A DNA stretch of 64,000 nucleotides from a bacterium (GCA_030674455.1 JAUSGQ010000007.1:83947-147946), one strand, 5' to 3'. Positions 1 through 57,705 are shown, numbered from the stretch's first letter. The notes: generated from the letters alone by a model not told the origin. Made by a program: numbers and translations.

Positions 1-864
1 GGAAATTCTTTGCGCCGCATCGTGCTTTCATCTCTGCCGGGAGCCGCTGTCACGCATGTAAAGATACCGGGCGTAGCGCACGAATTCTCTACTATTGAAG
101 GCGTCAAGGAAGACGTCGTTACAATATTGCTTAATATACGAAAGATACGCCTCAAGCTCGTTACCGACGAGCCTCAAACGATTACGCTTCACGTCAAAGG
201 ACCAAAGGCTGTGACAGCTGCAGACTTGAAGCTCCCAGGCCAAGTTGAAGTTCTGAATCCCGAGAGCCATATCGCAGACATCAGCGGAAAAGTGACATTG
301 GAAGTTGAACTTCGCGCGGAACGCGGCCTCGGCTACATTCCGAAGGAAGTGCATCAGAAAGAGCGCGTTGATGTGGGTACTATCGCATTAGACGCTATTT
401 TCTCTCCGATTCGCCGCGTGAATTACGAAGTCGAGAACATGCGCGTGGGCGACAGAACGGATTTCAACCGTTTGCGAATCCTCATTGAGACGGATGGAAC
501 CATCGCCCCGAGAGAGGCGCTTGAGCGCTCAATAGAGACAATGATCCACCAACTTAAGGCCGTCGTCGGCTTCAGAGAAGAGGATGTCGCTGAGCGCGAT
601 GTCATGGCCTCTGCCGGTATACGGGAATCAAGGCGCGATGAGAAAGCGGCGCCTGACGCAGAAGTCCTCAAGACTCGCATCACCGAATTGAACATGCCGC
701 AGCGAGTAACGGATGCCTTAGATAACGCTTCGATACGGACAGTCGGCGGACTCGTGCGCAAGCGCGAAGACGACCTGCTTTCTATTGAAGGGCTCGGCCA
801 AAAGGGCCTGCAAGACATCAAGCGCGCGCTTTCTAACCTCGGCCTAACACTTCGCTCCCAATAA
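1..864 (+). CDS. rpoA: DNA-directed RNA polymerase alpha subunit, 5-prime truncated at window edge (starts near residue 40 of the E. coli alignment)
   Basis: The translation aligns with RpoA N-terminal, dimerisation and C-terminal domains (LRRIVLSSLPGAAVTHVKIPGV..., alpha-CTD LNMPQRVTDALDNASIRTVGGLV...GLGQKGLQDIK). The reading frame is open from nt 1. Confidence 0.9.
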   Translation, partial: GNSLRRIVLSSLPGAAVTHVKIPGVAHEFSTIEGVKEDVVTILLNIRKIRLKLVTDEPQTITLHVKGPKAVTAADLKLPGQVEVLNPESHIADISGKVTLEVELRAERGLGYIPKEVHQKERVDVGTIALDAIFSPIRRVNYEVENMRVGDRTDFNRLRILIETDGTIAPREALERSIETMIHQLKAVVGFREEDVAERDVMASAGIRESRRDEKAAPDAEVLKTRITELNMPQRVTDALDNASIRTVGGLVRKREDDLLSIEGLGQKGLQDIKRALSNLGLTLRSQ

Positions 865-974
865 GTATGTCCCAATTTACAAATGATACGAATACTACGA
901 ATGGCCACGAATATACGCGGATTAACATTTGTAGTTATTTGTAGATTGGAATTGATTCGTAGATTGGTAACCAT

Positions 975-1343
975 ATGAAGCATCACAACAAAAAGAGAAC
1001 GCTCGGACGAAAGACAGGACAACGGACAGCGCTATTGCGCAGCTTGGCCAGGTCTCTCATTCTTGCCGGAGGAATAACGACAACCATTGCCCGTGCAAAA
1101 GAATTGCGTCCTTTTGTTGAGAAATTGATTTCTGCAAGCAAAGCAAACACGACTGCTTCTCGCCGGACCGTTTCGGCGCGCCTGGGCGGCAGTCCTGACG
1201 CAGTCTTAGAGCTTCACCAAAAAATAGCGCCCGGCTTTAAGGCACGAGTCGGTGGATATACGCGAATTGTCCGGTTAGGGCGCGTTGGGAAGAGGGCGAT
1301 TGAATCCGCACGCATTGAATTAGTGACTGCAGACGGCAAATAA
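975..1343 (+). CDS. rplQ: 50S ribosomal protein L17
   Basis: MKHHNKKRTLGRKTGQRTALLRSLARSL...GYTRIVRLGRV is a typical L17 sequence. The gene sits directly after rpoA as in the conserved alpha operon. Confidence 0.9.
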   Translation: MKHHNKKRTLGRKTGQRTALLRSLARSLILAGGITTTIARAKELRPFVEKLISASKANTTASRRTVSARLGGSPDAVLELHQKIAPGFKARVGGYTRIVRLGRVGKRAIESARIELVTADGK

Positions 1344-1348
1344 TTTTT

Positions 1349-1705
1349 ATGGCTAAACAATCCGAATATACTATTGATGCGGCCGGCAAGAGCATGGGGC
1401 GCGTTGCCTCGCTTGCAGCGAAGACGCTTATGGGAAAGACCGAAGCGCAATACACGCCGCACATTCGCTCCGACGTTAAAGTAACCATCGTGAACGCATC
1501 CAAGCTGATTAATACTGATAAGAAGCAGCTTGGAAAGAAATACACTTCGTACTCCGGCTACCCTGGCGGATTGAAGACTGAAGCGCTCGGCAAGCTCCAG
1601 ATTCGCAAGGGCCATGGCGAGCCGCTTCGTCGCGCGATCGAGAGAATGCTCCCTCGCAACACTATGCGCGTTGCCAGAATGAAGAACCTCACAATCGTTG
1701 TATAA
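1349..1705 (+). CDS. rplM: 50S ribosomal protein L13
   Basis: The L13 pattern (SGYPGGLK, RAIERMLPRN) is present. It is followed by rpsI as in the conserved L13-S9 operon. Confidence 0.9.
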   Translation: MAKQSEYTIDAAGKSMGRVASLAAKTLMGKTEAQYTPHIRSDVKVTIVNASKLINTDKKQLGKKYTSYSGYPGGLKTEALGKLQIRKGHGEPLRRAIERMLPRNTMRVARMKNLTIVV

Positions 1706-1830
1706 TGCAATTTATAATTCTCAATTTTGCAATTTATAATCAATATGCAATGAGCTAATTATCAAACATGGAACATTGAAAATTCAATGAAAATTGGAAA
1801 TTAATAATTGAAAATTCATTTACTATCACT

Positions 1831-2226
1831 ATGTCAACCAAAGAAAGATACGTAGAAGCAGTTGGACGAAGAAAGACCGCGAGCGCACGAGTTCGGCTTG
1901 TTCCCGCAAAGACTTCATCAATGACAGTAAACGGAAAGACTGCCGCGGAATATTTCCCGCTCGAAGCGCTCGTAAAGACCGCTTTTGAATCGTTAACCTC
2001 AACCAATTCGACGTACGCAGTTTCGGTGCACGTATCCGGCGGAGGCCACAAAGGGCAGGCAACAGCAGTGCGGCACGCGATTTCCCGCGCACTCACGGAA
2101 ATCACACCCGAATTCCGCAAAGACCTTAAGCACAGAGGATTTTTGAAACGCGACCCGAGAGCGAAAGAGCGAAAGAAATTCGGTCTCAAGAAAGCGAGAA
2201 GGGCTCCTCAATGGAGTAAGCGCTAA
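1831..2226 (+). CDS. rpsI: 30S ribosomal protein S9
   Basis: YVEAVGRRKTASARVRL...GGGHKGQATAVRHAISRAL...KRDPRAKERKKFGLKKARRAPQWSKR is a canonical S9. Confidence 0.9.
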   Translation: MSTKERYVEAVGRRKTASARVRLVPAKTSSMTVNGKTAAEYFPLEALVKTAFESLTSTNSTYAVSVHVSGGGHKGQATAVRHAISRALTEITPEFRKDLKHRGFLKRDPRAKERKKFGLKKARRAPQWSKR

Positions 2227-2239
2227 CAAACCAATTGGT

Positions 2240-2497
2240 ATGCATCCAATACGTGTCGGTATAATCAACGCGATCCTGCCCGGCCTCGGCTATTTATTAC
2301 TTGGGCGACGTCTGCTATTCGGTTGGCTTATCTTCGCCGGGACTATACTGTTGATCATTGCCAGTTTTGTAGAACCTGCGGCAAATGATCTACTTCTTAG
2401 TACGACTTTTGAAGGAAGAATTCTTGAGGCTTTCTTCATGGGTGTGTGGGCAATAGCCTTTGGAGTTGATGCGTATAACGAAGCGCGAGTAAAATGA
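2240..2497 (+). CDS. small hypothetical membrane protein (85 aa, 2 predicted TM helices)
   Basis: The ORF has a hydrophobic helical composition. No recognisable family. Confidence 0.35.
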   Translation: MHPIRVGIINAILPGLGYLLLGRRLLFGWLIFAGTILLIIASFVEPAANDLLLSTTFEGRILEAFFMGVWAIAFGVDAYNEARVK

Positions 2498-2569
2498 ACT
2501 CCTGCTTAGCCCTAGGCCATAGACTCTCGGTCTAGAAGTCGAAAGGTTTTTTTGTTATACTCACGCTCC

Positions 2570-3148
2570 ATGACAGAGGAGCGTAAAAAAAATGAGGCTC
2601 CTGAAACGGAGTCTCATGATGAAGTCGATTTTGAACCCGAAGAAGAGTTCGGAACTTTTGGTGCTGCAAAAGCAAAACTCGCCAAATTAAGGGCGGAGCT
2701 TGAGAAGTGCAAAGAAGAAAAGCAGGAATATCTTGTCGGCTGGCAGAGATGCAAAGCCGATTCAATCAATGCGAAAAAAGATGCAATTAATATGGCGGAG
2801 CGGGCGGGAAATCGCGCGCGAGATTCGCTCATCGAAGATATCATTCCGGCGCTTGATAGCTTTGATATGGCGATATCGAGCGGCACATGGGCAACCATGG
2901 ACGAGAATTGGCGCAGGGGAATGGAAAATGTCCGTTCGCAATTGCTTTCGGCTATTTACAATCAGGGGGTTGAAGACTTCGCTGAAATTGGAGACGAATT
3001 TGACCCGGCCATGCATGAAGCGGTGCAAGAAGTTGAAGAGAATGGCGGAAAACCCGGAACTATCGCAAACGTAATTCGCCGCGGGTATCGGAGAGAAAAT
3101 CAGATAATTCGAGCAGCCCAGGTTTCAGTTGTAGTTCACAAAAAATAG
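2570..3148 (+). CDS. grpE: nucleotide exchange factor GrpE
   Basis: It has the GrpE coiled-coil plus C-terminal beta domain (IEDIIPALDSFDMA, FDPAMHEAVQ). The start is set at the internal ATG (MTEERKK). It sits upstream of dnaK. Confidence 0.85.
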   Translation: MTEERKKNEAPETESHDEVDFEPEEEFGTFGAAKAKLAKLRAELEKCKEEKQEYLVGWQRCKADSINAKKDAINMAERAGNRARDSLIEDIIPALDSFDMAISSGTWATMDENWRRGMENVRSQLLSAIYNQGVEDFAEIGDEFDPAMHEAVQEVEENGGKPGTIANVIRRGYRRENQIIRAAQVSVVVHKK

Positions 3149-3160
3149 AGTACGATTAGA

Positions 3161-3189
3161 TTGACAAAAGCTTTCTAACTATTTATATA
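3161..3189 (+). promoter_or_regulatory. sigma70-like promoter upstream of dnaK (TTGACA-17-TATATA)
   Basis: A TTGACA hexamer at 3161-3166, a 17-nt spacer and TATATA at 3184-3189 are seen directly. No CIRCE inverted repeat was found nearby. Confidence 0.45.
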
Positions 3190-3332
3190 TAATGTTGATA
3201 AAATCCAAATCTCAAAATCCAAATCTCAAACAAATTACAATGATTAAATTCCAAACAATTCCGGTTTGTTTAATTAGTTTATTTACTGGAGCTTGTTTGT
3301 AATTTGGAGCTTGGAGCTTAATATATAAATAC

Positions 3333-5249
3333 ATGGGAAAAATAATTGGCATCGACTTAGGAACTACAAACTCGGCAGTTGCCGTTGTTCGCGGCGGTGA
3401 GCCGGAAATCGTCGAGAACGCGGAAGGGGCGCGAACCACTCCATCCGTAGTCGCAATCTCTAAAACAGGGGAGCGCCTCGTGGGACTACTGGCGAGAAGG
3501 CAAGCTGTTACGAATCCAAAAAACACGATATTCCAAATAAAGCGCTTTATCGGCCACTCGTTTGACGAGCCCGCCGTCGACAAAGACAGAAAGGCCGTAC
3601 CGTTTGAGATACGAAAATCTACCAGCGGCGGCATTGAGGTGCACATGGGCGCCGCTCCGGGCGGGTCGGACGAGCCAAAGTGGTACCGTCCTGAAGAAAT
3701 TTCAGCGATGATTTTGCAGAAATTAAAACAGGATGCGGAAGCAAAGCTGGGAGAGACAATAACCGAAGCTGTTATAACGGTACCCGCATACTTTAACGAT
3801 GCACAGCGCCAGGCAACGCGAGATGCCGGAAAAATCGCCGGTCTTGATGTAAAAAGAATAATCAATGAGCCGACTGCGGCCGCGCTTGCATATGGTTTTA
3901 ATAAAAAGAAAAACGAGAAGATCGTCGTATTCGATTTTGGCGGAGGAACGTTTGACATATCGGTTCTCGAAGTCGGCGATGACGTGATAGAGGTGCGTTC
4001 AACCGATGGTGACAGCCACCTAGGAGGAAAAGACATCGACCAAAAGATAATGGCGTGGATTGCCGATGAGTTTAAGAAAGAGTCGGGGATTGATGTGCGT
4101 AATGATGCCCTAGCCCGCCAGCGCCTTGATGAGGCAGCGGAAAAGGCAAAAATAGAGCTCTCAACCGCTCTCGAAACCGAGATTAACATTCCATTCATCA
4201 CCTCTGATGCGTCCGGTCCGCGGCACTTGCTTGTTAAGATGACGCGGGCAAAGCTGGAAGATATTGCCCGCGAATTCATCGAGAAAGCGATGACCATTAC
4301 CAAGCGGGCGATGGACGCATCACCTTTTAAAAACGGCGACCTGAACGAAGTCATCCTGGTCGGCGGACAAACGCGCATGCCTGCCCTCCAAAAAGCCGTT
4401 GAGGATTTCTTTAAGAAGAAGCCCAACATGACGGTGAATCCGGACGAGGTAGTCGCAATCGGAGCCGCCATACAAGGAGGCATTCTTCAGGGCGATGTAA
4501 AAGATGTTTTGCTTCTTGATGTAATCCCTCTGTCTATGGGAATTGAAACGATGGGAGGAGTGGCGACAAAAATCATTGAACGAAATACGACGATACCAAC
4601 ATCGCGCTCGCAAGTATTTTCGACTGCATCCGACAACCAGCCGTCTGTTGAAATACACATCGTGCAGGGCGAGAGGCCGATGGCAGCTGACAACAAATCG
4701 CTCGGAAGATTCAACCTCGACGGTATTCCACCGGCGCCGCGCGGCATGCCTCAAGTTGAGGTAAAATTCGACATAGACGCGAACGGCATCTTGAGCGTTA
4801 CCGCAAAAGACAAAACGACCGGAAAGGAACAGTCAATCAGAATTGAAGCGCGTTCCGGCCTCACGGATGCCGAAGTTGAAAAGATGCGCAAAGATGCTGA
4901 CACTAATGCCGAGGCCGACAAACAAAAACGGGAACTTGTTGAAGCCCAAAATGCAGCAGACCAGCTCCAATATTCCGCAGAAAAAGCTCTCAAAGAGCAC
5001 GGAGAGAAGGTGAGCGAGGATATACGCAAGAATGTAGAGGTGAGAATTGACGCTCTTAAGACTGCGCGCGCAGGCACCGATGCCGCAGCGATAAAAACGG
5101 CGTCTGAGGCGCTTTCATCAGCGATGAGCGCGATTGGCCCCGCCGTCGCCAAGGCTAAGGCGGACGAGGAAGCGCAGTCGAAGACTCCGCCTGCGCAAGA
5201 GCCGCCAAATGGTGACGAGCAAAAACCGCCGGATAGTGAAACAAAGTGA
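3333..5249 (+). CDS. dnaK: chaperone DnaK (Hsp70)
   Basis: [32 protein letters not shown] and the full length (638 aa) are unambiguous Hsp70. Confidence 0.95.
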
Positions 5250-9780: not shown

Positions 9781-11106
9781 ATGAGATTTAAGGAGGCCAA
9801 AGGAGCCATAAAGAGATCTAGGTCTATAGAGGATATTAGGCAGGCACGCGAAACAATCAAGGGTCTTGACGATGAACATTATCATCTTCCTTTTGAATTC
9901 CCGGTTGCGAGCGAGTTATTAGACGCCTATCTTGCGCGAAAATCATTGCCGTATAATAAACAGCCAAATGCAAGGATTTATCTTTCTGCGGACGGAAAGG
10001 TTAATTACGACGCGTACACGCTTGGAGAAGTACATGACCCAACTTACGTTTTCGGCATTGCCGATGAGAGCAGGCACGCAGAAGTCAATGGGTTACAGAC
10101 ACCTCAATTTAGCGACGTCGTGGCAAGTGCCCCGATTGAGCAACCATCAATTACAAACATAATTCATGTCAAGAATACCGGATTAGTGGTTTTTAAGGCA
10201 TTTCTTAAAAAGTCGCTTAGCACAATGGCAAGAAGCAAGATTCCCCGGGCCAATGCCTTGTATGACGAGAAAAGGGCCGTCAGCGAGAGTGCACAGCTTG
10301 CACTGTTGGGAGATATTTTTAAGAATAGCGCCGATGTTTATGTTCCGCGAGTACTCGGCCACAGTCGTTCCGTAATCGCGATGGAGTATATCCAGGGAGA
10401 GGACATCTCAGAATTGACTTTCAAAAGATTCCTAAATAAACACGATTTTCTTGCAATTGCTGATGTACTTGCAACGATACACATTGAATTTGCTAGAAAT
10501 GCCGAGAAAATCAAGGGTAAATTCAATATTCCTGAAAGTCACACCGCGAATAGCGTCGTAAGTTTCGAAAAGAGAACGAGTCAGTTTCATCACGAGCATC
10601 GGGATAACGGCTTGAAACAAGAGTTATTTGATAGATTTACATCGTTAATTGAACGCGGGCGTCAAGTCATTGCTGATAATCACGAGGCATACCATGATTA
10701 TCGGGATTTGATTTACGGTGACTTTAAGGATGAAAATCTGATTAAAATGCCAGATGGCAGAATAGCACTGATTGACCCGACTATTTGTGCTGGCAGAAAT
10801 AGTATGGACATAGCAAAATTTGCGCGAAGTATTCTTTTCAAGGACCCAACGACTTACACTAAACACTTCCATGATTTCTTGAGAAGGTATCAGGAGCAGA
10901 CCGATACTGTCGTTAATGAGAGAGAGGTCGCAAATATGCTGGGTATTGACATGCTCAACATCATGCGAAGCTATTTTCTGATACCCGAAAAGCAGGTACT
11001 GGTATTTCCACCTACGGTTCGTAATGTCCGACAACATGCAAAATATTACCTTGATTTTATTGACAATGTGTTTGCAAGCAATCTACAGCTCGAGCTTGCG
11101 CATTAA
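9781..11106 (+). CDS. protein-kinase-like fold phosphotransferase (APH/RIO/Kdo-kinase-like)
   Basis: A hinge-like VIAMEYIQGEDI, the catalytic loop LIYGDFKDENLI (HGDxxxxN-like, with D and N conserved) and the metal-binding RIALIDPT (DFG-equivalent) are present. The first ~180 aa have no recognisable family. The gene is AT-rich relative to its neighbours. Confidence 0.5.
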   Translation: MRFKEAKGAIKRSRSIEDIRQARETIKGLDDEHYHLPFEFPVASELLDAYLARKSLPYNKQPNARIYLSADGKVNYDAYTLGEVHDPTYVFGIADESRHAEVNGLQTPQFSDVVASAPIEQPSITNIIHVKNTGLVVFKAFLKKSLSTMARSKIPRANALYDEKRAVSESAQLALLGDIFKNSADVYVPRVLGHSRSVIAMEYIQGEDISELTFKRFLNKHDFLAIADVLATIHIEFARNAEKIKGKFNIPESHTANSVVSFEKRTSQFHHEHRDNGLKQELFDRFTSLIERGRQVIADNHEAYHDYRDLIYGDFKDENLIKMPDGRIALIDPTICAGRNSMDIAKFARSILFKDPTTYTKHFHDFLRRYQEQTDTVVNEREVANMLGIDMLNIMRSYFLIPEKQVLVFPPTVRNVRQHAKYYLDFIDNVFASNLQLELAH

Positions 11107-12576: not shown

Positions 12577-13191
12577 ATGATTTCGTCCATGGCATCAATA
12601 ATAACTGAACGAGGAAGAGCAATTCACGGCTGGTTTTTACGCCACAAGGAGCGGATTGGGATTATCGCTATAGGACATACGGCAAAACAGATTGAGGAGT
12701 TTTTCTTAGACTGGCTTTTATACGGATTTGTCGTGTTCAAGAGCGCCGAAATTTGGGGTCCTTATTACGGCGCCTTGGTTGCTTTCGCTGTGATGTCGCC
12801 ATTCTCGGCTTTGCTTTGCTATCTCTACATTCGTTTTTACGACTGGGCAAAAAAAGATTGGCTCGGCTTGGAAACTATCGAGGAGTTTAGGCAATCCGAA
12901 GCAACAGCTGGCCCAATAATGCGATGGGTAATTAAGTTCACTAAACTTGGCGACTTTCCGATGTTCGTTGTGTTATCAATATATGGAGACCCGTTTGTAG
13001 TTACTTTGTATTTCCGGCGCGGAGCGCACTTGTACAACGGCCTTTCAAAACGGGACTGGTCTATTTTTTGGGCAAGCGTAGTGTTCTCCAACGCGTACTG
13101 GACGCTCCAGTGGGGAATTATTGTCGCGCTTTTGCATCCGCTTTGGCAGTATGTATTGCAACCGATTCTCCATTTTGTGGGATTTTTCTAA
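12577..13191 (+). CDS. hypothetical membrane protein (204 aa, ~4 TM)
   Basis: The ORF is hydrophobic. It is co-oriented with, and 31 nt after, the previous gene. No recognisable family. Confidence 0.4.
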   Translation: MISSMASIITERGRAIHGWFLRHKERIGIIAIGHTAKQIEEFFLDWLLYGFVVFKSAEIWGPYYGALVAFAVMSPFSALLCYLYIRFYDWAKKDWLGLETIEEFRQSEATAGPIMRWVIKFTKLGDFPMFVVLSIYGDPFVVTLYFRRGAHLYNGLSKRDWSIFWASVVFSNAYWTLQWGIIVALLHPLWQYVLQPILHFVGFF

Positions 13192-13245
13192 TTCGCGTAA
13201 GTAAGGTTGACAACGTGGTGGAAAACGTCGTATCTCAACTGACGA

Positions 13246-13291
13246 GAAGATTGACTTAAAATATCCGGTCGGATATTTTAAGTCAATCTTC
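13246..13291. promoter_or_regulatory. perfect 22-2-22 palindrome (operator-like) containing an embedded promoter TTGACT-17-TATTTT
   Basis: GAAGATTGACTTAAAATATCCG-GT-CGGATATTTTAAGTCAATCTTC is seen directly. TTGACT lies at 13251-13256, the spacer is 17 nt, and TATTTT lies at 13274-13279, ~45 nt upstream of the MazF-like start. Confidence 0.55.
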
Positions 13292-13325
13292 TAAATTCCA
13301 CTTGAGTTCCCATGCTGGTGCTACA

Positions 13326-18265: not shown

Positions 18266-18432
18266 GAAGACACGTTATTTTGATGATGCGAAACAATTAT
18301 TTCAAGGTTGCCGCCGGCGCGGGATTTGTCTTGGCGATAATGCTGTTCGTCGCGGCCGGCGGCGCGGAGCGGTTGCGCGAAACGGTCAAGTGGGTATCAA
18401 AGGAAGCTCAATCAAATGTGAATAATGGGATA

Positions 18433-19219
18433 GGATAATGGGGTCAGCCACCATTTATGATATCATGCGCGCATGCCAAGGATGCAATAATGGATAATGG
18501 GGTCAGCCACCATTTATGATATAATAACCGCATGCCAAGAATAGAACGAACTGACATTGGTGATTATGTGTATCACGTAATCAATAGAGCAAACGCTCGA
18601 GTACAGATATTTGACAGCGACAAAGATTACGAGCTTTTTGAGAATATCCTTGAGGAAGCGGTGGAGAAATTCGACATGAGACTCTTGGCTTATTGCATCA
18701 TGCCAAATCACTGGCACTTAGTTCTGTATCCAAGAAATGACGGAGACCTTTCTCTCTTTATGGGCTGGCTTACTAACACGCACACAAGAAGATGGCATAC
18801 CGGAAAGGGAACCATAGGACAAGGCCATCTTTATCAGGGCAGATACAAGTCATTCTTATGCCAAGATGATAGTCATTTTCTTTCCCTCGTGCGCTACGTG
18901 GAACGTAACGCGAAAAGAGCAAATCTAGTTAAAAAAGCGGAAAACTGGAAATGGTCTAGCGCATGGCGAAAAGAATATGGAACAACTAAACAAAAGAAGA
19001 TTCTCTCACCATGGCCGGTTCCTGCACCGAGAAACTATCTGCAATGGCTAAATCAAGCACAAACAGAAGATGAAGAAGAGGCAATAAGGAGGTCTGTTAC
19101 AAAGGGTAACCCATATGGTGGGAGTGGCTGGACAGATAACGTAGTAAAAAGATTCGGCCTTGAGCAAACACTAAGGAAAGTAGGCAGGCCGAACACAAAC
19201 AATGGTGGCTGACCCCATT
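18433..19219 (+). mobile_element. IS200/IS605-family (tnpA-only) element or REPtron-like unit with a tandem-duplicated left end
   Basis: The 31-bp GGATAATGGGGTCAGCCACCATTTATGATAT occurs twice in tandem (18433-18463 and 18493-18523) before the transposase gene. Its inverse complement (AATGGTGGCTGACCCCATT) lies at 19201-19219, overlapping the gene stop. Confidence 0.5.
18532..19212 (+). CDS. IS200-like / REP-associated Y1 (HUH) tyrosine transposase
   Basis: It has the HUH motif CIMPNHWHLVLYP and a conserved Tyr region (RYVERNAKRANLV). It is 226 aa long and flanked by inverted copies of a hairpin-forming repeat. Confidence 0.75.
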   Translation: MPRIERTDIGDYVYHVINRANARVQIFDSDKDYELFENILEEAVEKFDMRLLAYCIMPNHWHLVLYPRNDGDLSLFMGWLTNTHTRRWHTGKGTIGQGHLYQGRYKSFLCQDDSHFLSLVRYVERNAKRANLVKKAENWKWSSAWRKEYGTTKQKKILSPWPVPAPRNYLQWLNQAQTEDEEEAIRRSVTKGNPYGGSGWTDNVVKRFGLEQTLRKVGRPNTNNGG

Positions 19220-19425
19220 TCTGCCATTTCCAGTGTAGTAAAATCAACCGATATGTTGACAGGTGCAGATATTAAGAAATTAAAAGTTGTCTTTACTTCA
19301 AAACCTAACTATATTCCAATCAGAAAACAACTAGCGCGCCACGAGCATTGGATAAAACAGATTGCTAGGAAGGTTGGTGTCGTGCTAGCTGAATGAATCC
19401 ATACATCATATAATTTCAATTTGTT

Positions 19426-19457
19426 CTACAGGACAATTCCATGGAATTGTCCTGTAG
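19426..19457. repeat. 32-bp perfect palindrome CTACAGGACAATTCCATGGAATTGTCCTGTAG
   Basis: Seen directly, 47 nt upstream of the ArsR-like gene. Confidence 0.8.
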
Positions 19458-19503
19458 AATGAGTTATGTCGATAACGATTAACAATTATAAATCGAGGTT
19501 TCT

Positions 19504-19788
19504 ATGAAAATCAACGCAAAAACCAACATGAAACGATGGACGGTGGTATTTCGTACTTTGTCCAATATAAATCGGCTGAAAATCATAGCTATGCTTTCCG
19601 ACGGCCGTAAGATGAATGTCGGTGATATCGCAGAAGACTTGAGGATTTCCTTCAAGGGTACATCGAATCATCTGGCTATGCTCAAAAATCTAGATGTTTT
19701 AGAAGCACAAGGTGCTTCCGGGCACGTGTTCTATTTTATAAATCCCAACATGCCTAAAGATTTCAAGATGGTAGTGGGTGTAATGTAA
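19504..19788 (+). CDS. ArsR/SmtB-family HTH transcriptional regulator
   Basis: LSNINRLKIIAMLSDGRKMNVGDIAEDLRISFKGTSNHLAMLKNLDVLEA matches the ArsR wHTH signature. Size is 94 aa. Confidence 0.6.
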   Translation: MKINAKTNMKRWTVVFRTLSNINRLKIIAMLSDGRKMNVGDIAEDLRISFKGTSNHLAMLKNLDVLEAQGASGHVFYFINPNMPKDFKMVVGVM

Positions 19789-19808
19789 ATCCTAGCCTCG
19801 GTTAGTTG

Positions 19809-19840
19809 TAATGGAACAATTCCATGGAATTGTTCCATTA
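19809..19840. repeat. 32-bp perfect palindrome TAATGGAACAATTCCATGGAATTGTTCCATTA
   Basis: Seen directly, 21 nt after the ArsR-like stop. It shares the core CAATTCCATGGAATTG with the upstream palindrome. Confidence 0.8.
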
Positions 19841-20019
19841 GCTGAAGCAAAAAACTCGGTAGAATATATATCGTTGCAAAAGATATCCATTAAGAAAGAT
19901 TCCTACCTCGGTTCTTGGACGGAATGAGAGATACTTCAAGTTGGGAACTGGATTCATGATTTACTAGAACTTGTGTAATAAGTGGTGCTAGATGCGGTTT
20001 TTCTGTTATTATAAGCCGT

Positions 20020-20955
20020 ATGCAACGGCTTCTAACCGGTGTTCAGCCATCCGGCACAACCCACCTTGGCAACTATTTTGGCGCGCTCCGGCCTTTCGTT
20101 TCCATGTATAAGGAATACGAGAGCATGCTGATGCTCGCCGATTACCACGCACTCACCACGCTCAAAGACCACGCCGAACTGCGCGAAAATGTAATGAATG
20201 CCGTCAGAGATTACATTGCTATCGGAGTGGACCCGAAACAAGCAACAATTTTCCAGCAATCCTCCGTTCCCGCTCACACGGAACTAGCATGGATTCTTGA
20301 GTGCCAAGTTACAGTTCCATTTCTGATGCAAGCGCACGCTTATAAAGACAAAGTTGCCAAAGGACTCGAGGCGAACGCCGGCCTGTTTTGCTATCCGATG
20401 CTCATGGCAGCCGATATTCTTATGTACGATACTGATGTGGTTCCGGTTGGTATTGACCAGAAACAGCACGTGGAATACGCGCGAGAGGCTGCCGCGAAAT
20501 TTAATACCGCGTACGGCGAGACTTTTAAGGAGCCGAAGGAAATGGTTTTGCGCGACTCGGCGACAGTTCCCGGCACTGACGGCAAGAAAATGAGCAAGAG
20601 TTATGGAAACACAATACCGCTTTTTGGCACAAAAGATGAAATTCACAAAGCGGTGATGGCGATCGTTACAGACTCAAAAGGTGAGAGCCCGGAGAATGTG
20701 TACGCGATACACCGCCTTGTAAAAGACGAGTCAGAAATCGCAACTCTATATAAATCTAATAAAGGAAAATACAAAGTTGTTAAAGACGCGCTTGCGGACG
20801 ATATTGATGCAATGGTCGCGCCAATGCGTGAAAAGCGCGAGTCTATAAGCGATGCCGATGTCATAAAAATACTCAAAGACGGTGCAGAAAGGGCGCGCGA
20901 GCAGGCCGAAGCGAAAATGGAAATTGTCCGGCAGAAAGTCGGAGTAACAATATGA
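20020..20955 (+). CDS. trpS: tryptophan--tRNA ligase
   Basis: It is a class I enzyme with an N-terminal TGVQPSGTTHLGNY (HIGH-like) and KMSKS (KMSKSYGNTIPLF). The ~311 aa size is typical of TrpRS. Confidence 0.9.
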   Translation: MQRLLTGVQPSGTTHLGNYFGALRPFVSMYKEYESMLMLADYHALTTLKDHAELRENVMNAVRDYIAIGVDPKQATIFQQSSVPAHTELAWILECQVTVPFLMQAHAYKDKVAKGLEANAGLFCYPMLMAADILMYDTDVVPVGIDQKQHVEYAREAAAKFNTAYGETFKEPKEMVLRDSATVPGTDGKKMSKSYGNTIPLFGTKDEIHKAVMAIVTDSKGESPENVYAIHRLVKDESEIATLYKSNKGKYKVVKDALADDIDAMVAPMREKRESISDADVIKILKDGAERAREQAEAKMEIVRQKVGVTI

Positions 20956-21066
20956 GGTGCCAATCTACAAATGGATTCCAATCTACAAATAACTACGAAT
21001 TAGAAATTCTAACATTTGTAGCCATTCGTAGTATTCGGATGATTCGTAGATTGGTACATCAATAAT

Positions 21067-22467: not shown

Positions 22468-22605
22468 ACATGCCCGGTAGGACAATTTCGAATTGCCTTG
22501 AATGAATATTCACCAACATATGGCAGGAAAGATTGCTGAAACACTTAAAGGCATATTCGCAGTTGAATATACGGCCGTAATTATTCGAAATTGTACTAAC
22601 CGGGT

Positions 22606-27900: not shown

Positions 27901-30711
27901 GCATTGCGTCTGGCTTTGAATAATTCATACGGCGAATCCGGTCGAGAGCCTCAGGATTATTATGGCACTGAAACTGTCGCTAACGTTAAGACATTCCAAT
28001 CAATACATCGTATTGAGCAGACTGGCATTGTTGAAGTTCAAACCTCAGCAAAATTGAACGATATCTTTGGATGCCAGCAGACAACCCCCACCTCTGACCC
28101 CATTATCTCTTCATTCACCCCCGAGTCGGTTGTGGCCGGAGCAACAACAAACATAGTAGTTAAAGGCCGCAACTTCCAGTTGGGAGCGGTTCTTGTCTAC
28201 ACTCTCGGTTCTGATACAGGCGAGTTGCCAACGACTTTTACGCCTGCGCCGATTCCGGGGCAAGAACAAAAATTGACCACCGGACGATATACCATTGACG
28301 CAGTAGGAAGTTATACCTTCCACGTCAAAAATCCCGACGGAAGAAGAAGCGAGGAAAAGATATTTGTTGTTACTCCGCGTGGGCAAGGAACTCAAACAAA
28401 CACTACTGCCGATAGTCCGCTGGCGTCCGCTCCCCAAATCCAATTTACCGTGAATGGTTCTGCGTATAGCGGTTCTAGATACGATGTATCTTTTGGAAGC
28501 ACAGTAAATATCGGGTGGAAGGTCACCAATCCATCCGGCGCAATATGTTCCGCCGCAGGAAACGGCATTGGAGATAATTTAGGTTCCGGCTCTATGCAAG
28601 CCAGCAATTCGTGGACAAACTGGACAACGCCGCCTCTTTACACCAGCACCACATACGGCATCAAATGCACCAACTCTCGAGGAACTACATACAAATACGT
28701 GTATGTGACGGTTGCGCCGCAGACAAACACATCGGGGGGCCCCGGTATCAGCATCACTGTTGACCCTGTTGACGCCAATACTAGCAACACATCTTACAGT
28801 GAAAGTTCTCCGCGAGTCAGCGTTGGGTTTGGAAAGAAGGTCAATATCGGTTGGGGCGTCACCAACGCCGGGGGCAGTACTTCGGGCATTACATGCTACG
28901 CAGCCGGAACAGGGCTAGGCGGAAGAAATGGTTATGAGAGCACTCCTTTAAGCGGCCTATGGACTACGCCGGCACTCTATACCGACACTACCTATGGAAT
29001 ACAATGCAAGAACTCGGCAGGCGCAATCACAAACAGATACATCTCTATTGATGTCGGCGAGCAGGCGAACACCGCCACTGCAATCACCCCGCCCGCCATC
29101 ACCATTAACGGTGATAGTAGTAACAATCAGCAACTTACATATTCCCCAGAAGTTGCATTTGGCGGCACTGCCAATATCAACTGGAGCGTTTCTCCGACGA
29201 GCGGCACCACTTGCTCCGCCGCAGGCAACGGCGTCTGGGGCAACACCGGTTCCGGTTCCGCAGAGTTAAGCGGCTCGTTCGCTACGCCGCCCCTCTACAC
29301 CAAAACCACGTACGGCATCAGATGCACTAACTCCGCCGGTACTACGTACAAGTACATAACCATCGGCATTCAAGAACAACAAAACACCACCACCACCGCC
29401 AGCACTCCCGCGCCAACTATCACCATTACGCCGCCTAGCGCGTCAATCGACTTTGGCGATAGCGCCACCTTCGGCTGGGATGTGACGCCACAAACTGCCG
29501 ATACCAAGTGCTATGCCGCGGGAACTGGTCTGGGCGGGGCAGAGGGATACCAAGAGATAGGCCTAACCGGAAGAAATTGGGTTACGCCGGCGCTCTACAC
29601 TTACACTACGTATGGAATAAAGTGTACAAACCCGGGCGGCACGACATACAAGTACGTGAACGTTTCTGTCGCCCCACAGCAGAGTACGACTTGCACCGAA
29701 GTCCCACAAACTCCGCTACCATGCGCCGACTATGCCGGTTCGTACGGAGTTCCTGCAGGATACACAGTCGGCAACGGCTCGTGGACAAAGAACAGCTGCA
29801 CCGGCAATCCAACCTACACTGGCGGGTGTTCGGCTCCCGCTCCAACCACACAGTCCTGCACCGAAGTTCCACAAACCCCACTGCCATGCGCCGACTACGC
29901 CGGCTCATACGGAGTCCCATCCGGATACACAGTCGGCAACGGTTCATGGACGAAAAATAGCTGCACAGGCAATCCAACTTATACCGGCGGCTGTTCTGCG
30001 CCAGCTCCAACGCAATCTTGCACCGAGGTCGCTCAAACTCCTCTACCGTGCGCCGACTACGCCGGCTCATACGGAGTCCCATCCGGATACACAGTCGGCA
30101 ACGGTTCATGGACGAAAAATAGCTGCACAGGCAATCCCACATACACGGGTGGTTGCTCCGCTCCCTCTGTCCCGACAGTCCGGCTCTCACAAAATTCGAG
30201 CAGTGGTACATCGGTCACTGTCACCTGGAGTTCCGACAATGCCGATTCATGCCGCCTTCAATACAATCTAAACGGAGGAGCCTGGACTGATTGGACATCG
30301 GGCGGTTCAAGCGGTTCAGTGAGCGGAGATTTGACTTCAGGAACGTGGAAAGCCAGAGCCATATGCACCGGCCCGGGCGGTACGACGACGAGTAGCACGA
30401 TAACCCACACTGTGGCAATCAGTTCTTCGCCCTTGAGCCAGACGGCGAGCGCCGCTGGCGCATTTCCAGAAGGAGAGGATGCGTTTATCTACACATGGAA
30501 CAATGACCTTCAGCTTAACTCGCGGTACGCGGCAGACATCAAGGCATTGCAGACTGCACTCGCGAAAGAAGGGGTGTACATCGGAGAAGTAACTGGAGGA
30601 TTCCACATGCAAACGTATTACGGGGTTAAAAGATTCCAAGAGAAGTACGGAATTGACTCCACCGGCTTTGTCGGCCCGCAAACGAGGGCAAGACTCAACG
30701 AGCTGTACTGA
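24970..30711 (+). CDS. giant secreted multidomain protein: metzincin-type zinc metallopeptidase domain, Ig-like/repeat domains, two peptidoglycan-binding domains
   Basis: A signal peptide is present (start possibly at MLRKFTFGGIGLALLITPLFASA, 25021). HEMGHELGVMH equals the HExxHxxGxxH metzincin motif. There are 4-5 ~95-aa repeats ending ...YGIKCTNSxGTTYKYVxV, and 3 tandem ~55-aa Cys repeats (CTEVPQTPLPCADYAGSYGVP...). PG_binding_1-like segments are present internally and at the C-terminus (YAADIKALQTALAKEGVY...GVKRFQEKYGIDSTGFVGPQTRARL). Confidence 0.7.
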   Translation: MYATIRLLPCLKASLLFMLRKFTFGGIGLALLITPLFASADTTSDATELSRWEAVVTCLKIKVDNHDYVNALSCLGAGTAANTLFSPSVSSLKAGALAAVATTFTQSSGSNSAEPATDAEKEAEMLTDLLSSKIAPEPVTRSKVGAFASESEKVKQQVQVAKHRGQLMKQLAEDNPEAFLRNVMPESQRSKFSTEVKNEIEQKVALTGKVEVVHLDDFTNHENSKFNYFLQSGGSRISLKVAGNTPAMLSGSSVRANGYKLGQTLVVAANSNSDGDSGGGGGLTVLSRPALESARTQRTLVILVTSPGQASTPTKEEMRNLIFSGNINRYYEEQSYGNVRFEGDVTDWISVPASSYPVYGPIELDQSDISSYISRNHIDLSLYDRVMTVVNGWAGGYAWAGKVDRLINGVTYRLSIGSTGWSVSGWAVENMSGFENVFSHEMGHELGVMHANSRECSGPSLDRDCRHNEYGNAFDIMGYGNNAEHFNAYYKDSLGWLDNSSKVSITQSGRYSLSPIEARTGVRAGIITNPATPSALPLYLEFRQPMGYDSILPPNSAGLQLNQVVTRGPYDWLPFPWLINANYATDPPCNPGFPCFSQPSLMQGSNFSWAGRGISIGSLVTTPTLATFDVGLTQPLCERNGLYDSNNNPYWQQRVAAGSSATLQINLTNGNTIACGPSTVEFSTSVTNSSGWSISQYPNESNERVVIAPGETERVYVSLSLPEDAAPGNRTVRITVSDLTNGRSYNIERTITVTARPTITEIFPSSGRAATAVTLKGTGFNEYPGNTININGGNLSATIRNVIARAGTLTFTFPTTFESYGGGSEPRPSQVPPPLGQYSIAVSRNDDGGTASATFTVTSGNSAFPTITSINPSSTTGRPTNFTIIGTNFQSGSMIYYTYAGTGSIPSGTFTPTFNPSRPDRLTFTTASLPKGIYTFYVKNPDGQISDTENVTVFCYDFRSIPLQEGSQGADVIALKQALRLALNNSYGESGREPQDYYGTETVANVKTFQSIHRIEQTGIVEVQTSAKLNDIFGCQQTTPTSDPIISSFTPESVVAGATTNIVVKGRNFQLGAVLVYTLGSDTGELPTTFTPAPIPGQEQKLTTGRYTIDAVGSYTFHVKNPDGRRSEEKIFVVTPRGQGTQTNTTADSPLASAPQIQFTVNGSAYSGSRYDVSFGSTVNIGWKVTNPSGAICSAAGNGIGDNLGSGSMQASNSWTNWTTPPLYTSTTYGIKCTNSRGTTYKYVYVTVAPQTNTSGGPGISITVDPVDANTSNTSYSESSPRVSVGFGKKVNIGWGVTNAGGSTSGITCYAAGTGLGGRNGYESTPLSGLWTTPALYTDTTYGIQCKNSAGAITNRYISIDVGEQANTATAITPPAITINGDSSNNQQLTYSPEVAFGGTANINWSVSPTSGTTCSAAGNGVWGNTGSGSAELSGSFATPPLYTKTTYGIRCTNSAGTTYKYITIGIQEQQNTTTTASTPAPTITITPPSASIDFGDSATFGWDVTPQTADTKCYAAGTGLGGAEGYQEIGLTGRNWVTPALYTYTTYGIKCTNPGGTTYKYVNVSVAPQQSTTCTEVPQTPLPCADYAGSYGVPAGYTVGNGSWTKNSCTGNPTYTGGCSAPAPTTQSCTEVPQTPLPCADYAGSYGVPSGYTVGNGSWTKNSCTGNPTYTGGCSAPAPTQSCTEVAQTPLPCADYAGSYGVPSGYTVGNGSWTKNSCTGNPTYTGGCSAPSVPTVRLSQNSSSGTSVTVTWSSDNADSCRLQYNLNGGAWTDWTSGGSSGSVSGDLTSGTWKARAICTGPGGTTTSSTITHTVAISSSPLSQTASAAGAFPEGEDAFIYTWNNDLQLNSRYAADIKALQTALAKEGVYIGEVTGGFHMQTYYGVKRFQEKYGIDSTGFVGPQTRARLNELY
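29692..30180 (+). repeat. three tandem in-frame coding repeats (165/162/162 nt), copies 2 and 3 near-identical at DNA level
   Basis: An ~86-nt stretch (29889-29974 versus 30051-30136) is identical between copies 2 and 3. Copy 1 starts at 29692. Confidence 0.8.
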
Positions 30712-30753
30712 CCTCTATTCAAGGTTCCACCTTGAATAGAGGTTTCAAGTTTT
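30712..30753 (+). terminator. Rho-independent terminator after the giant gene
   Basis: A 13-bp perfect stem CCTCTATTCAAGG / CCTTGAATAGAGG with loop TTCCA, then TTTCAAGTTTT, begins the nucleotide after the stop codon. Confidence 0.6.
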
Positions 30754-43530: not shown

Positions 43531-44276
43531 AGGTTAGTCAGACTAACCTTTATTCAAACTCCGCTTGCAACCATTTTCCCCCTTCAATTACGTCTCTAGC
43601 GAAATTCTTGAAAGATCTCGGTGTCGTAAATATCTCTCCTAGCAAATCTTTCTCGATAATCGGCAGCTGTGAAGAGTTTGCATAATGACTAAGACTTGAG
43701 TATTTGTACTCAATCCCCCATTCCCATGCATCTTCAAAATGCTCGGTAGCGCCGCGCAGACCACCCTTCGGATATAACTCAAACACATTTTTCACCATGA
43801 TGTATGCCGATACATACCGTAAATAATTATCGTTCTCTATGGTGCGTCCTCGGTACGAACCCTGAAAGATGCTTCCTTGCTGGTCGTATTTCTCGTTGTG
43901 ATAGTTCGTCATGCTCTGACACAGCTTTTGCATGAAGGCAGAAATCCCGCCTTCACGTATCTCTTTTAGGAGAAGATGAAAGTGATTCGGCATGAGCGTG
44001 TACGCGAGAATTCGCACAAGTGGTTCTCTGTCGGGCCACGTCGCAGGCCTAAAGAATCGCCCATCAAGGTCTGCGCTATACCAGTTCTCATCGAAAAATT
44101 CGTCGTTCATATAATACAGCAGGCGCAAAAAACGCCACTGCTCCGATTCGTCTTCAGTGATGGGCAATCCTCGCGCACCTCGCTTTACCACATGCACATA
44201 CGAGTCAACCCCGAAAGGCTCTACACGCATACCTCATTCTACCCTATAGGTTAGTCTGACTAACCTTTATTCAAAC
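43531..44276 (-). mobile_element. IS200/IS605-family (tnpA-only) element bounded by direct copies of the hairpin repeat GGTTAGTCWGACTAACC-TTTATTCAAAC
   Basis: The 28-bp repeat is present at ~43531-43558 and ~44249-44276, flanking the transposase ORF. The core GGTTAGTC/GACTAACC is an imperfect palindrome. Confidence 0.55.
43550..44230 (-). CDS. IS200-like / REP-associated Y1 (HUH) tyrosine transposase
   Basis: It has the HUH motif LMPNHFHLLLKE and a conserved Tyr region (YLRYVSAYIMVKN). It is 226 aa, the same size as, and related to, the transposase at 18532-19212. Confidence 0.75.
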   Translation of the reverse strand: MRVEPFGVDSYVHVVKRGARGLPITEDESEQWRFLRLLYYMNDEFFDENWYSADLDGRFFRPATWPDREPLVRILAYTLMPNHFHLLLKEIREGGISAFMQKLCQSMTNYHNEKYDQQGSIFQGSYRGRTIENDNYLRYVSAYIMVKNVFELYPKGGLRGATEHFEDAWEWGIEYKYSSLSHYANSSQLPIIEKDLLGEIFTTPRSFKNFARDVIEGGKWLQAEFE

Positions 44277-54378: not shown

Positions 54379-54436
54379 CGGAGTTTATCAAAACATTCCA
54401 ACATTCTCAAGAATGTTGGAATGTTTTGACGGCATT

Positions 54437-57636: not shown

Positions 57637-57705
57637 ATATTTACCATATCATAACGCATACATGCCGAAAACCCCGCATAGTATGCGGGGTTTTCGGCTA
57701 TTAAT

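Follow-up and report, generated by a model that had tools for sequence, protein, structure and literature searches.

The two palindromes that flank a small ArsR-like gene in the stretch of DNA analysed here (64,000 nucleotides, called the window below) probably serve as cognate operators for the regulator of ArsR/SmtB fold that they enclose, and we put the probability of this reading at roughly 70%. O1, the upstream predicted operator TTCTACAGGACAATTCCATGGAATTGTCCTGTAGAA, was located by the repeat finder as a perfect palindrome of 36 bp at 19424-19459, and O2, the predicted second operator, as a perfect palindrome of 32 bp at 19809-19840. A first-pass annotation of the same DNA had described two perfect 32-bp palindromes with a common 16-nt core. 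This length is right for O2 but not for O1, and the common core extends to the 18 nt ACAATTCCATGGAATTGT, found at 19433-19450 in O1 and with the same letters at 19816-19833 in O2. The core consists of the half-sites ACAATTC and GAATTGT, the centres of which are 11 bp apart.

A search of the window with the 16-nt core, allowing up to three mismatches, gave two matches, O1 and O2, both of them exact, while the chance expectation for an exact 16-mer is about 3e-5 per 64 kb. When up to three half-site mismatches were allowed, the window held nothing other than O1, O2 and a candidate at 22479-22497 between aspS and scpA, which the first-pass annotation had given as a degenerate half-site pair. This candidate was examined and discarded as a chance match, as the spacing of its half-sites is 4 bp shorter than in O1 and O2 and the related loci L001, L005 and L006 show no conservation of the region. 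The Rfam scan of the window returned no match at the gathering score, and the matches of the palindromes at E<1, miRNA hairpins only, were dismissed as meaningless.

The enclosed open reading frame (19504-19788, plus strand) encodes a winged-helix protein of 94 amino acids and matches Pfam HTH_5 with 36 bits (cutoff 22), which bears out the ArsR-family gene of the first-pass annotation. Its length may be 86 rather than 94 amino acids: in the alignment the conserved start of the homologues is M9 (19528, MKRW), and most homologues have 86-88 residues. A total of 169 homologues were found, with identities of 65-100% among the best 120 of these, and their sources are Patescibacteria/Paceibacterota, including Wolfe-, Sung-, Lipton-, Staskawicz-, Jorgensen- and Tagabacteria. 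Across Paceibacteria the regulator has 86-94 amino acids and is 60-90% identical, and its recognition helix ISFKATSNHLAMLKNLDVLE is nearly invariant in the homologue alignment. A profile search against PDB gave CzrA, HlyU and SmtB at about 1e-9. The AF2 monomer model (pLDDT 91) has helices at residues 5-31, 39-46 and 50-62, a beta-hairpin at 66-79 and a further helix at 85-93. All of the top 30 Foldseek matches of this model are ArsR-family or related winged-helix regulators, with HlyU, CzrA and SmtB at the top. The predicted ArsR/SmtB fold is therefore a confident assignment, based on Pfam, the PDB profile search, AF2 and Foldseek.

The protein has no cysteine and only two histidines, H56 in the recognition helix and H74 in the wing. 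This composition precludes every metal or metalloid site known from the ArsR/SmtB family. The match to the NCBIfam HTH_metalloreg model, 50.9 bits, is under the cutoff of 55. Judged on its sequence, the regulator is a member of the ArsR/SmtB fold family that stands outside the metal-sensor subset. The two-fold symmetry of the site appears consistent with a dimer.

Conservation of the arrangement was assessed with a protein-alignment scan using one genome per species, which yielded 27 loci; after addition of close relatives and redundancy reduction the set comprised 29. A core was accepted if it had at most three mismatches over 16 informative positions, and the regions covered were 260 bp upstream of the gene and 140 bp after the stop codon. 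All 29 non-redundant loci, found by protein similarity, carry the core upstream of the gene, and 27 of them carry it within 140 bp 3' of the stop codon as well, while the chance of such a match is about 1e-3 per region of 260 bp. The consensus core, ACAATTCyATrGAATTGT (18 bp), is 98-100% conserved in every column except the Y and R of the central YATR. Spacing between O1 and O2 varies from 323 to 408 bp across loci, these spacings having no common helical phase, and the upstream and downstream sites are not seen in a consistent direct or inverted relative orientation. The protein is usually encoded alone and does not head a resistance operon. On this comparison, a regulator bracketed by palindromes is an arrangement kept across the uncultivated class Paceibacteria.

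The strongest evidence that the enclosed protein reads the palindrome comes from a second ArsR family in Paceibacteria, of 86 amino acids and with 888 homologues. A member of this family at L011 3578-3838 is 29-31% identical to the regulator, and the ACAATTC core is absent nearby. In all five independent loci of the paralogue a different palindrome, CTCTAATTCGyGCGAAT, is found before the promoter and again at or just after the stop codon (L011 3520-3553 and 3827-3860; the other loci are L161, L163, L165 and L167). In L011 and L165 there is an overlap between the stop codon and the downstream copy; the two L011 copies are identical quasi-palindromes, forming a 45-bp direct repeat which includes the last codons of the gene. 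Both core types have AATTC-N4-GAAT in common, the differences lying in their centres and flanks. The recognition helices of both families have SFK-TS-HL in common and differ at four to five positions, among them A/S, N/K and KN/SA. Since the paralogue is bracketed by a different palindrome, the site changes with the protein family, and each palindrome is probably read by the protein it encloses. Neither the paralogue protein nor its palindrome is present in the window.

The logo of the upstream sites, oriented with the gene, is cATTGa-core-cCTATaat. We read this as a predicted promoter with a TTGAAC-like -35 box, the core as the 18-nt spacer, and TATAAT or TATGAT as the -10 box. In several lineages the predicted -10 is located 6-9 nt before the ATG, a leaderless arrangement, and in other lineages the -10 is found 8-15 nt further on, so that the palindrome lies over the -35 region. 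The palindrome overlaps the predicted -35/-10 in 29 out of 29 loci, and in every case the upstream site thus covers part of the predicted core promoter. In the window the predicted -10 is TAGAAT (19455-19460, plus strand), contained in the outer right arm of O1 and replaced by TACAAT or TATAAT in close relatives; the candidate -35, AGGACA (19430-19435), is weak and has a 19-nt spacer to TAGAAT. The outer arms of O1 read TAnAAT on both strands in the clade of the window, and in L005 and L006 TATAAT is present on both strands, thereby also facing the divergent glmS. As a separate observation, the 5' leader of the regulator gene contains a second conserved element, a direct repeat GATTAY-TA-GATTAY, which is GATAACGATTAAC at 19471-19483 in the window and was found in the long-leader lineages (L005, L006, L013, L017, L024, L025, L067, L102 and L150).

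As the site overlaps the predicted core promoter, repression by occlusion is predicted: protein on O1 would exclude RNA polymerase, and the result would be negative autoregulation. A single dimer would place its two recognition helices in successive major grooves, one on ACAATTC and one on GAATTGT. This placement is proposed because of the known binding mode of the family and the 11 bp between the half-site centres.

O2 begins 20 nt 3' of the stop codon in the window. For 52 unique loci the distance from the stop codon to the centre of the downstream site is 11-77 nt, mostly 16-57 nt and at most 57 nt in 51 of these. In the logo the downstream sites are mostly symmetric (cATTGa...tCAATg) and without a -10 box, and there is no T enrichment 3' of the stem. 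O2 might be considered the operator of the next gene's promoter, in which case the bracket would combine autoregulation with regulation of a downstream target. A -10-like right arm of O2 in about one third of the loci (such as L019, L026, L028, L032 and L033) is in line with this, and so are the -10-like boxes and short leaders that follow the downstream copy in the paralogue loci L165 and L167. However, the site is kept in front of a convergent next gene in 12 of 47 unique loci, the downstream neighbours belong to no recurrent family, and trpS, the downstream neighbour in the window, has its own predicted extended -10, TGtTATTAT (20004-20012), which is located about 165 bp past O2 and is also conserved in L005 and L006. 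For these reasons we assign O2 to the regulator gene and not to the neighbour gene, an assignment which the comparison of loci supports, and a role as operator of the next gene is quite unlikely. The extended -10 is positioned 7 nt before the ATG of trpS, which suggests a leaderless or near-leaderless trpS mRNA. A close arrangement of -10 and ATG like that of trpS is found in many regulator genes of this group.

A position directly behind a gene would also suit a hairpin, and bidirectional terminators had been among the readings offered by the first-pass annotation. In its general form this explanation takes the palindromes as mainly hairpins, in RNA or as extruded DNA, which act as factor-independent terminators or 3'-end stabilisers and shield the regulator gene from the genes next to it, the ArsR-like protein not being the reader of the core. 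The short distance between stop codon and O2 fits, as does the position of O1, often 13-60 nt past the end of a co-directional upstream gene. The stems are stable, with predicted folding of -17 to -29 kcal/mol and z from -5 to -8, the values for O2, which differ by strand, being about -17 to -19 kcal/mol. For canonical terminators consisting of a hairpin and a T run, the count in this genome, 18, does not exceed the 22 expected, and further genes of the window are followed by long perfect palindromes that have no sequence in common.

There are four such palindromes, perfect and with arms of 15-23 nt (13245-13292, 30711-30743, 54388-54429 and 57664-57698), each directly 3' of a stop codon. One is located in a convergent gap, and for one the stem is GC-rich and T runs are present. 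All four look like hairpins placed at gene ends, apparently a recurrent trait of this genome, and are unrelated to each other in sequence. Long perfect palindromes, which had been described as rare by chance, are therefore a feature of this genome; what does set O1 and O2 apart is that they are the only pair of window palindromes with sequence in common. A different kind of repeat was seen in the gap between trpS and aspS, where an inverted-repeat element of about 110 bp (20953-21061) contains CCAATCTACAAAT twice and ATTCGTAGATTGG in inverted orientation. Similar copies are present at two places in L006, and the element is possibly a small mobile or structured one.

Against hairpins as the main explanation, an 18-nt core invariant throughout the class and a different invariant core in the paralogue need a sequence-specific reader, whereas structure alone would drift by compensatory changes. 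The stems of both palindromes are AT-rich and flanked by tgagtt and gctgaagc, no T run follows 3' of the stems, and the terminator scan of the window called neither O1 nor O2. On the sense strand G.U mismatches are barely above A.C mismatches (26 against 17), which is not decisive as an RNA signature. Furthermore, the upstream copy comes with promoter hexamers in a defined orientation. By stem composition and the missing T run O2 does not qualify as a canonical terminator, and we regard it as unlikely that the palindromes are mainly hairpins. The position of O2 and the covariation of the arms do leave room for a hairpin or roadblock role of this copy.

This covariation concerns the outer arms of 6-10 bp, which are variable between sites and complementary within a site, so that pairing is preserved. 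An arm matches the opposite arm of its own site with a complementarity of 0.79-0.83, compared with 0.53-0.71 when the partner arm is taken from the locus's other site. A lineage-specific arm preference was considered as the cause and explains only a part, because the match within the own site exceeds that with the other site of the locus. Covariation of arms is not predicted for a homodimer on two independent half-sites. It points to selection for a hairpin or cruciform, or to 'correction' of quasi-palindromes by template switching (PMC7202029, PMC5453318).

Under the operator reading O2 would most likely bring the regulator transcript to an end or cut it short, as a roadblock with protein bound, as a hairpin or as both, and in this way would insulate trpS. 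Alternatively, O2 could anchor a repression loop with O1.

The gene order in relatives with 84-90% protein identity is HisK, glmS (minus strand), arsR, trpS, aspS, scpA and scpB, with an additional DUF3467 gene in one clade. Both palindromes are at the same places in all of these relatives, and the core and the position of O1 are kept in L001-L010. From palindrome to palindrome the DNA is 80-82% identical to that of the relatives, compared with about 69% for the flanking housekeeping genes. Downstream of O2, a non-coding block at 19841-19969 is about 80% identical to L001 4346-4453 and has no Rfam match. In L001 this block precedes an 88-aa DUF3467 gene; the window is without DUF3467, and homology resumes at trpS.

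The gene glmS is absent from the whole window, and the slot it occupies in relatives is held by a Y1 transposase gene (18532-19212), 210 bp upstream of O1. The first-pass annotation had noted an IS200-like neighbour, and this is a Y1 transposase indeed, but by profile matches it is nearer to the REP-associated tyrosine transposases (RAYT). RAYT-family enzymes recognise DNA hairpins, and the palindromes could on this account be REP-type repeats serviced by the adjacent enzyme. However, the transposase is framed by a repeat of its own, AATGGGGTCAGCCACCATT, with two direct copies (18437 and 18496, plus strand) and one inverted copy (19201-19219) in the region 18424-19219, no further copy in the window and no relation to the palindromes. 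No homologue of the transposase was found among the 156 loci that carry the palindrome or the regulator (L001-L156), and in the relatives with glmS in the slot the palindromes are unchanged. The unrelated repeats and the lack of a homologue in L001-L156 indicate that the transposase is next to the regulator by coincidence, and the REP/RAYT reading is effectively refuted. Elsewhere in the window, 43799-44017 on the minus strand holds a weak Y1-transposase-like fragment with 35% identity over 75 amino acids to the RAYT-like protein.

It had also been suggested that the palindromes are the ends of a hairpin-ended mobile unit carrying the regulator. Taken more widely, palindrome, gene and palindrome would constitute a present or past mobile or recombining cassette, with the palindromes as ends or recombination sites and copies away from a regulator gene (solo sites) as footprints or docking sites. 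For the window this does not hold: as the relatives keep the gene and both palindromes in order, a mobile unit is ruled out here, and no direct repeats that could represent a target-site duplication are present around 19424-19840. In other genomes several observations do resemble a cassette. Two contigs of one MAG contain a palindrome-gene-palindrome block of 403 bp with 95% identity and unrelated flanks (L011 2422-2824 and L018 2422-2824), and this keeps a cassette-like history possible, although the contigs could derive from two binned strains. In L102 two tandem paralogues each have their own pair of sites, and the direct repeat formed by the paralogue copies in L011 would suit a cassette too. 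The central YATR is asymmetric in 153 of 221 unique sites (69%), where 110 (50%) were expected, similar to the spacers of recombination sites; the perfectly symmetric CATG centres of the window are the minority form. L073 has six sites in 12.8 kb (within 1-4500, at 9870 and at 12617), located between small accessory genes (NYN, HTH, Doc/Fic), and four of the six are consecutive and in one orientation. On the other side, no integrase-like ORF was found among the L073 ORFs (12.8 kb inspected) and no recombinase or integrase recurs among the neighbours of the sites. The upstream and downstream sites, as stated, are neither consistently direct nor inverted. Taken together, this makes a cassette a very unlikely explanation of the bracket.

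The metagenome scan for the exact core gave at least 174 sites in at least 120 stretches. Among the matches listed, 58 of 174 exact-core sites are within 200 bp of an arsR-like gene and about two thirds are solo. The first-pass annotation had set a core found at many unrelated loci against the operator reading; solo sites are indeed the larger part of the metagenome matches listed, but the density is low, with two sites in 64 kb. About a dozen of the listed solo sites are situated inside long ORFs and are mostly poorly palindromic, and these look like chance matches. The other listed solo sites fall between genes and are full palindromes as a rule; a -10 box is absent in 80 out of 89, and they are found in co-directional, convergent and divergent gaps alike. 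No recurrent gene family, that is, no conserved regulon, was found beside the listed solo sites. Compared with random positions in the same gaps, solo sites showed no bias toward gene ends or gene starts, with crude ORF calls. Additional sites have a tendency to form clusters no more than 1-2 kb from arsR and are otherwise of low density: the two stretches analysed of a 621 kb contig contained three sites at the arsR locus and one that is intragenic and poorly palindromic.

In some lineages (L073, L118, L119, L135 and L102) the palindrome is part of a composite intergenic repeat consisting of GGCCAAC, an A-run, TTAGGCnAGTAAAT, the palindrome and GGCCAAC. In L119 (1414-1857) an ACAATTC palindrome is present on both sides of a gene for a 109-aa membrane-anchored winged-helix protein, which is non-ArsR, and a relative of this protein is encoded about 1 kb from a solo site in L091 (8421-8780). 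The viral contigs gave four exact core matches without extended arms; two are TTGACA-N17-TATAAT promoters that hold the core by chance, and we set these matches aside as uninformative.

The solo sites, being mostly symmetric, without a -10 box and present in all contexts, are not what would be expected of a simple promoter-operator regulon. A tentative extension of the operator reading, to which we give a low but appreciable probability, is that a single protein governs where its transcript begins as well as where it stops, and so forms a self-contained insulated module. The many solo copies would then act as protein-dependent roadblocks or insulators of transcription, or serve as docking sites when modules move, and would be spread through the compact genomes of Paceibacteria, in which canonical terminators appear scarce.

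The regulator was compared with known systems. SmtB, CzrA and CadC are ArsR/SmtB autorepressors with 12-2-12 inverted-repeat operators in their own promoters. The regulator resembles them in the HTH_5 fold, in a palindrome of similar length over its own predicted promoter and in the predicted negative autoregulation; unlike them it is without a metal site, has a second copy of the operator behind the gene, stands alone and has a new operator sequence. HlyU, PagR, NolR, BigR/SqrR and YgaV are non-metal members of the ArsR family, small homodimeric winged-helix proteins. They are among the top structural matches of the regulator and, like it, have no canonical metal site, but their identity to it is 17-26% and their operators differ. 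Moreover, BigR, SqrR and HlyU use a thiol switch, which a protein free of cysteine cannot have. None of these non-metal members is known to us as bracketed by operators. Nor do we know of any ArsR-family member with a second operator behind its own gene, or of a description of ArsR-type proteins whose genes are flanked by operators on both sides.

In the lac system (O1-O2-O3), looping allows auxiliary operators separated by a few hundred bp to cooperate. O1 and O2 of the regulator are 323-408 bp apart, without helical phasing, and the protein family is a different one. LacI bound at the lac operator O3, at the 3' end of lacI, is a roadblock to elongating polymerase and lowers its own synthesis (PMC3711431). 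Similarly, O2 is a predicted operator located where the regulator gene ends; the lac site serves the promoter of the neighbouring operon, whereas O2 is kept whatever is downstream.

With intrinsic terminators O2 has in common a stable hairpin directly after the stop codon, and as a perfect palindrome it folds on either strand; the AT-rich stem, the absence of a U tract and the class-wide invariance of the apical 18 nt are differences. Like REP elements, the palindromes are short and intergenic and have solo copies, and in some lineages they are part of the composite intergenic repeats. Unlike REP/RAYT systems, the palindromes appear to have a low copy number, and they have no link to RAYT and a transcription-factor gene as their constant partner. 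A MITE or hairpin-ended unit would differ by presence/absence polymorphism in relatives and a target-site duplication, and integron attC cassettes by an integrase.

The literature search found no mention of the motif, of a Patescibacteria ArsR operator or of an operator bracket. The regulator is of a known kind, a predicted autoregulated ArsR-family repressor; new are the undescribed operator sequence, the double-operator bracket conserved in two paralogous families and the solo sites without promoters.

Since the bacteria of the Candidate Phyla Radiation (CPR) are uncultivated, there is hardly any knowledge of how their transcription is controlled. The present analysis provides a concrete candidate pair of regulator and operator for the CPR, together with a paralogous pair of altered specificity, and a predicted promoter architecture, including leaderless starts, for Paceibacteria. 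If the downstream and solo sites are protein-dependent roadblocks, the finding would have a bearing on the way in which transcription units are ended and insulated in streamlined genomes.
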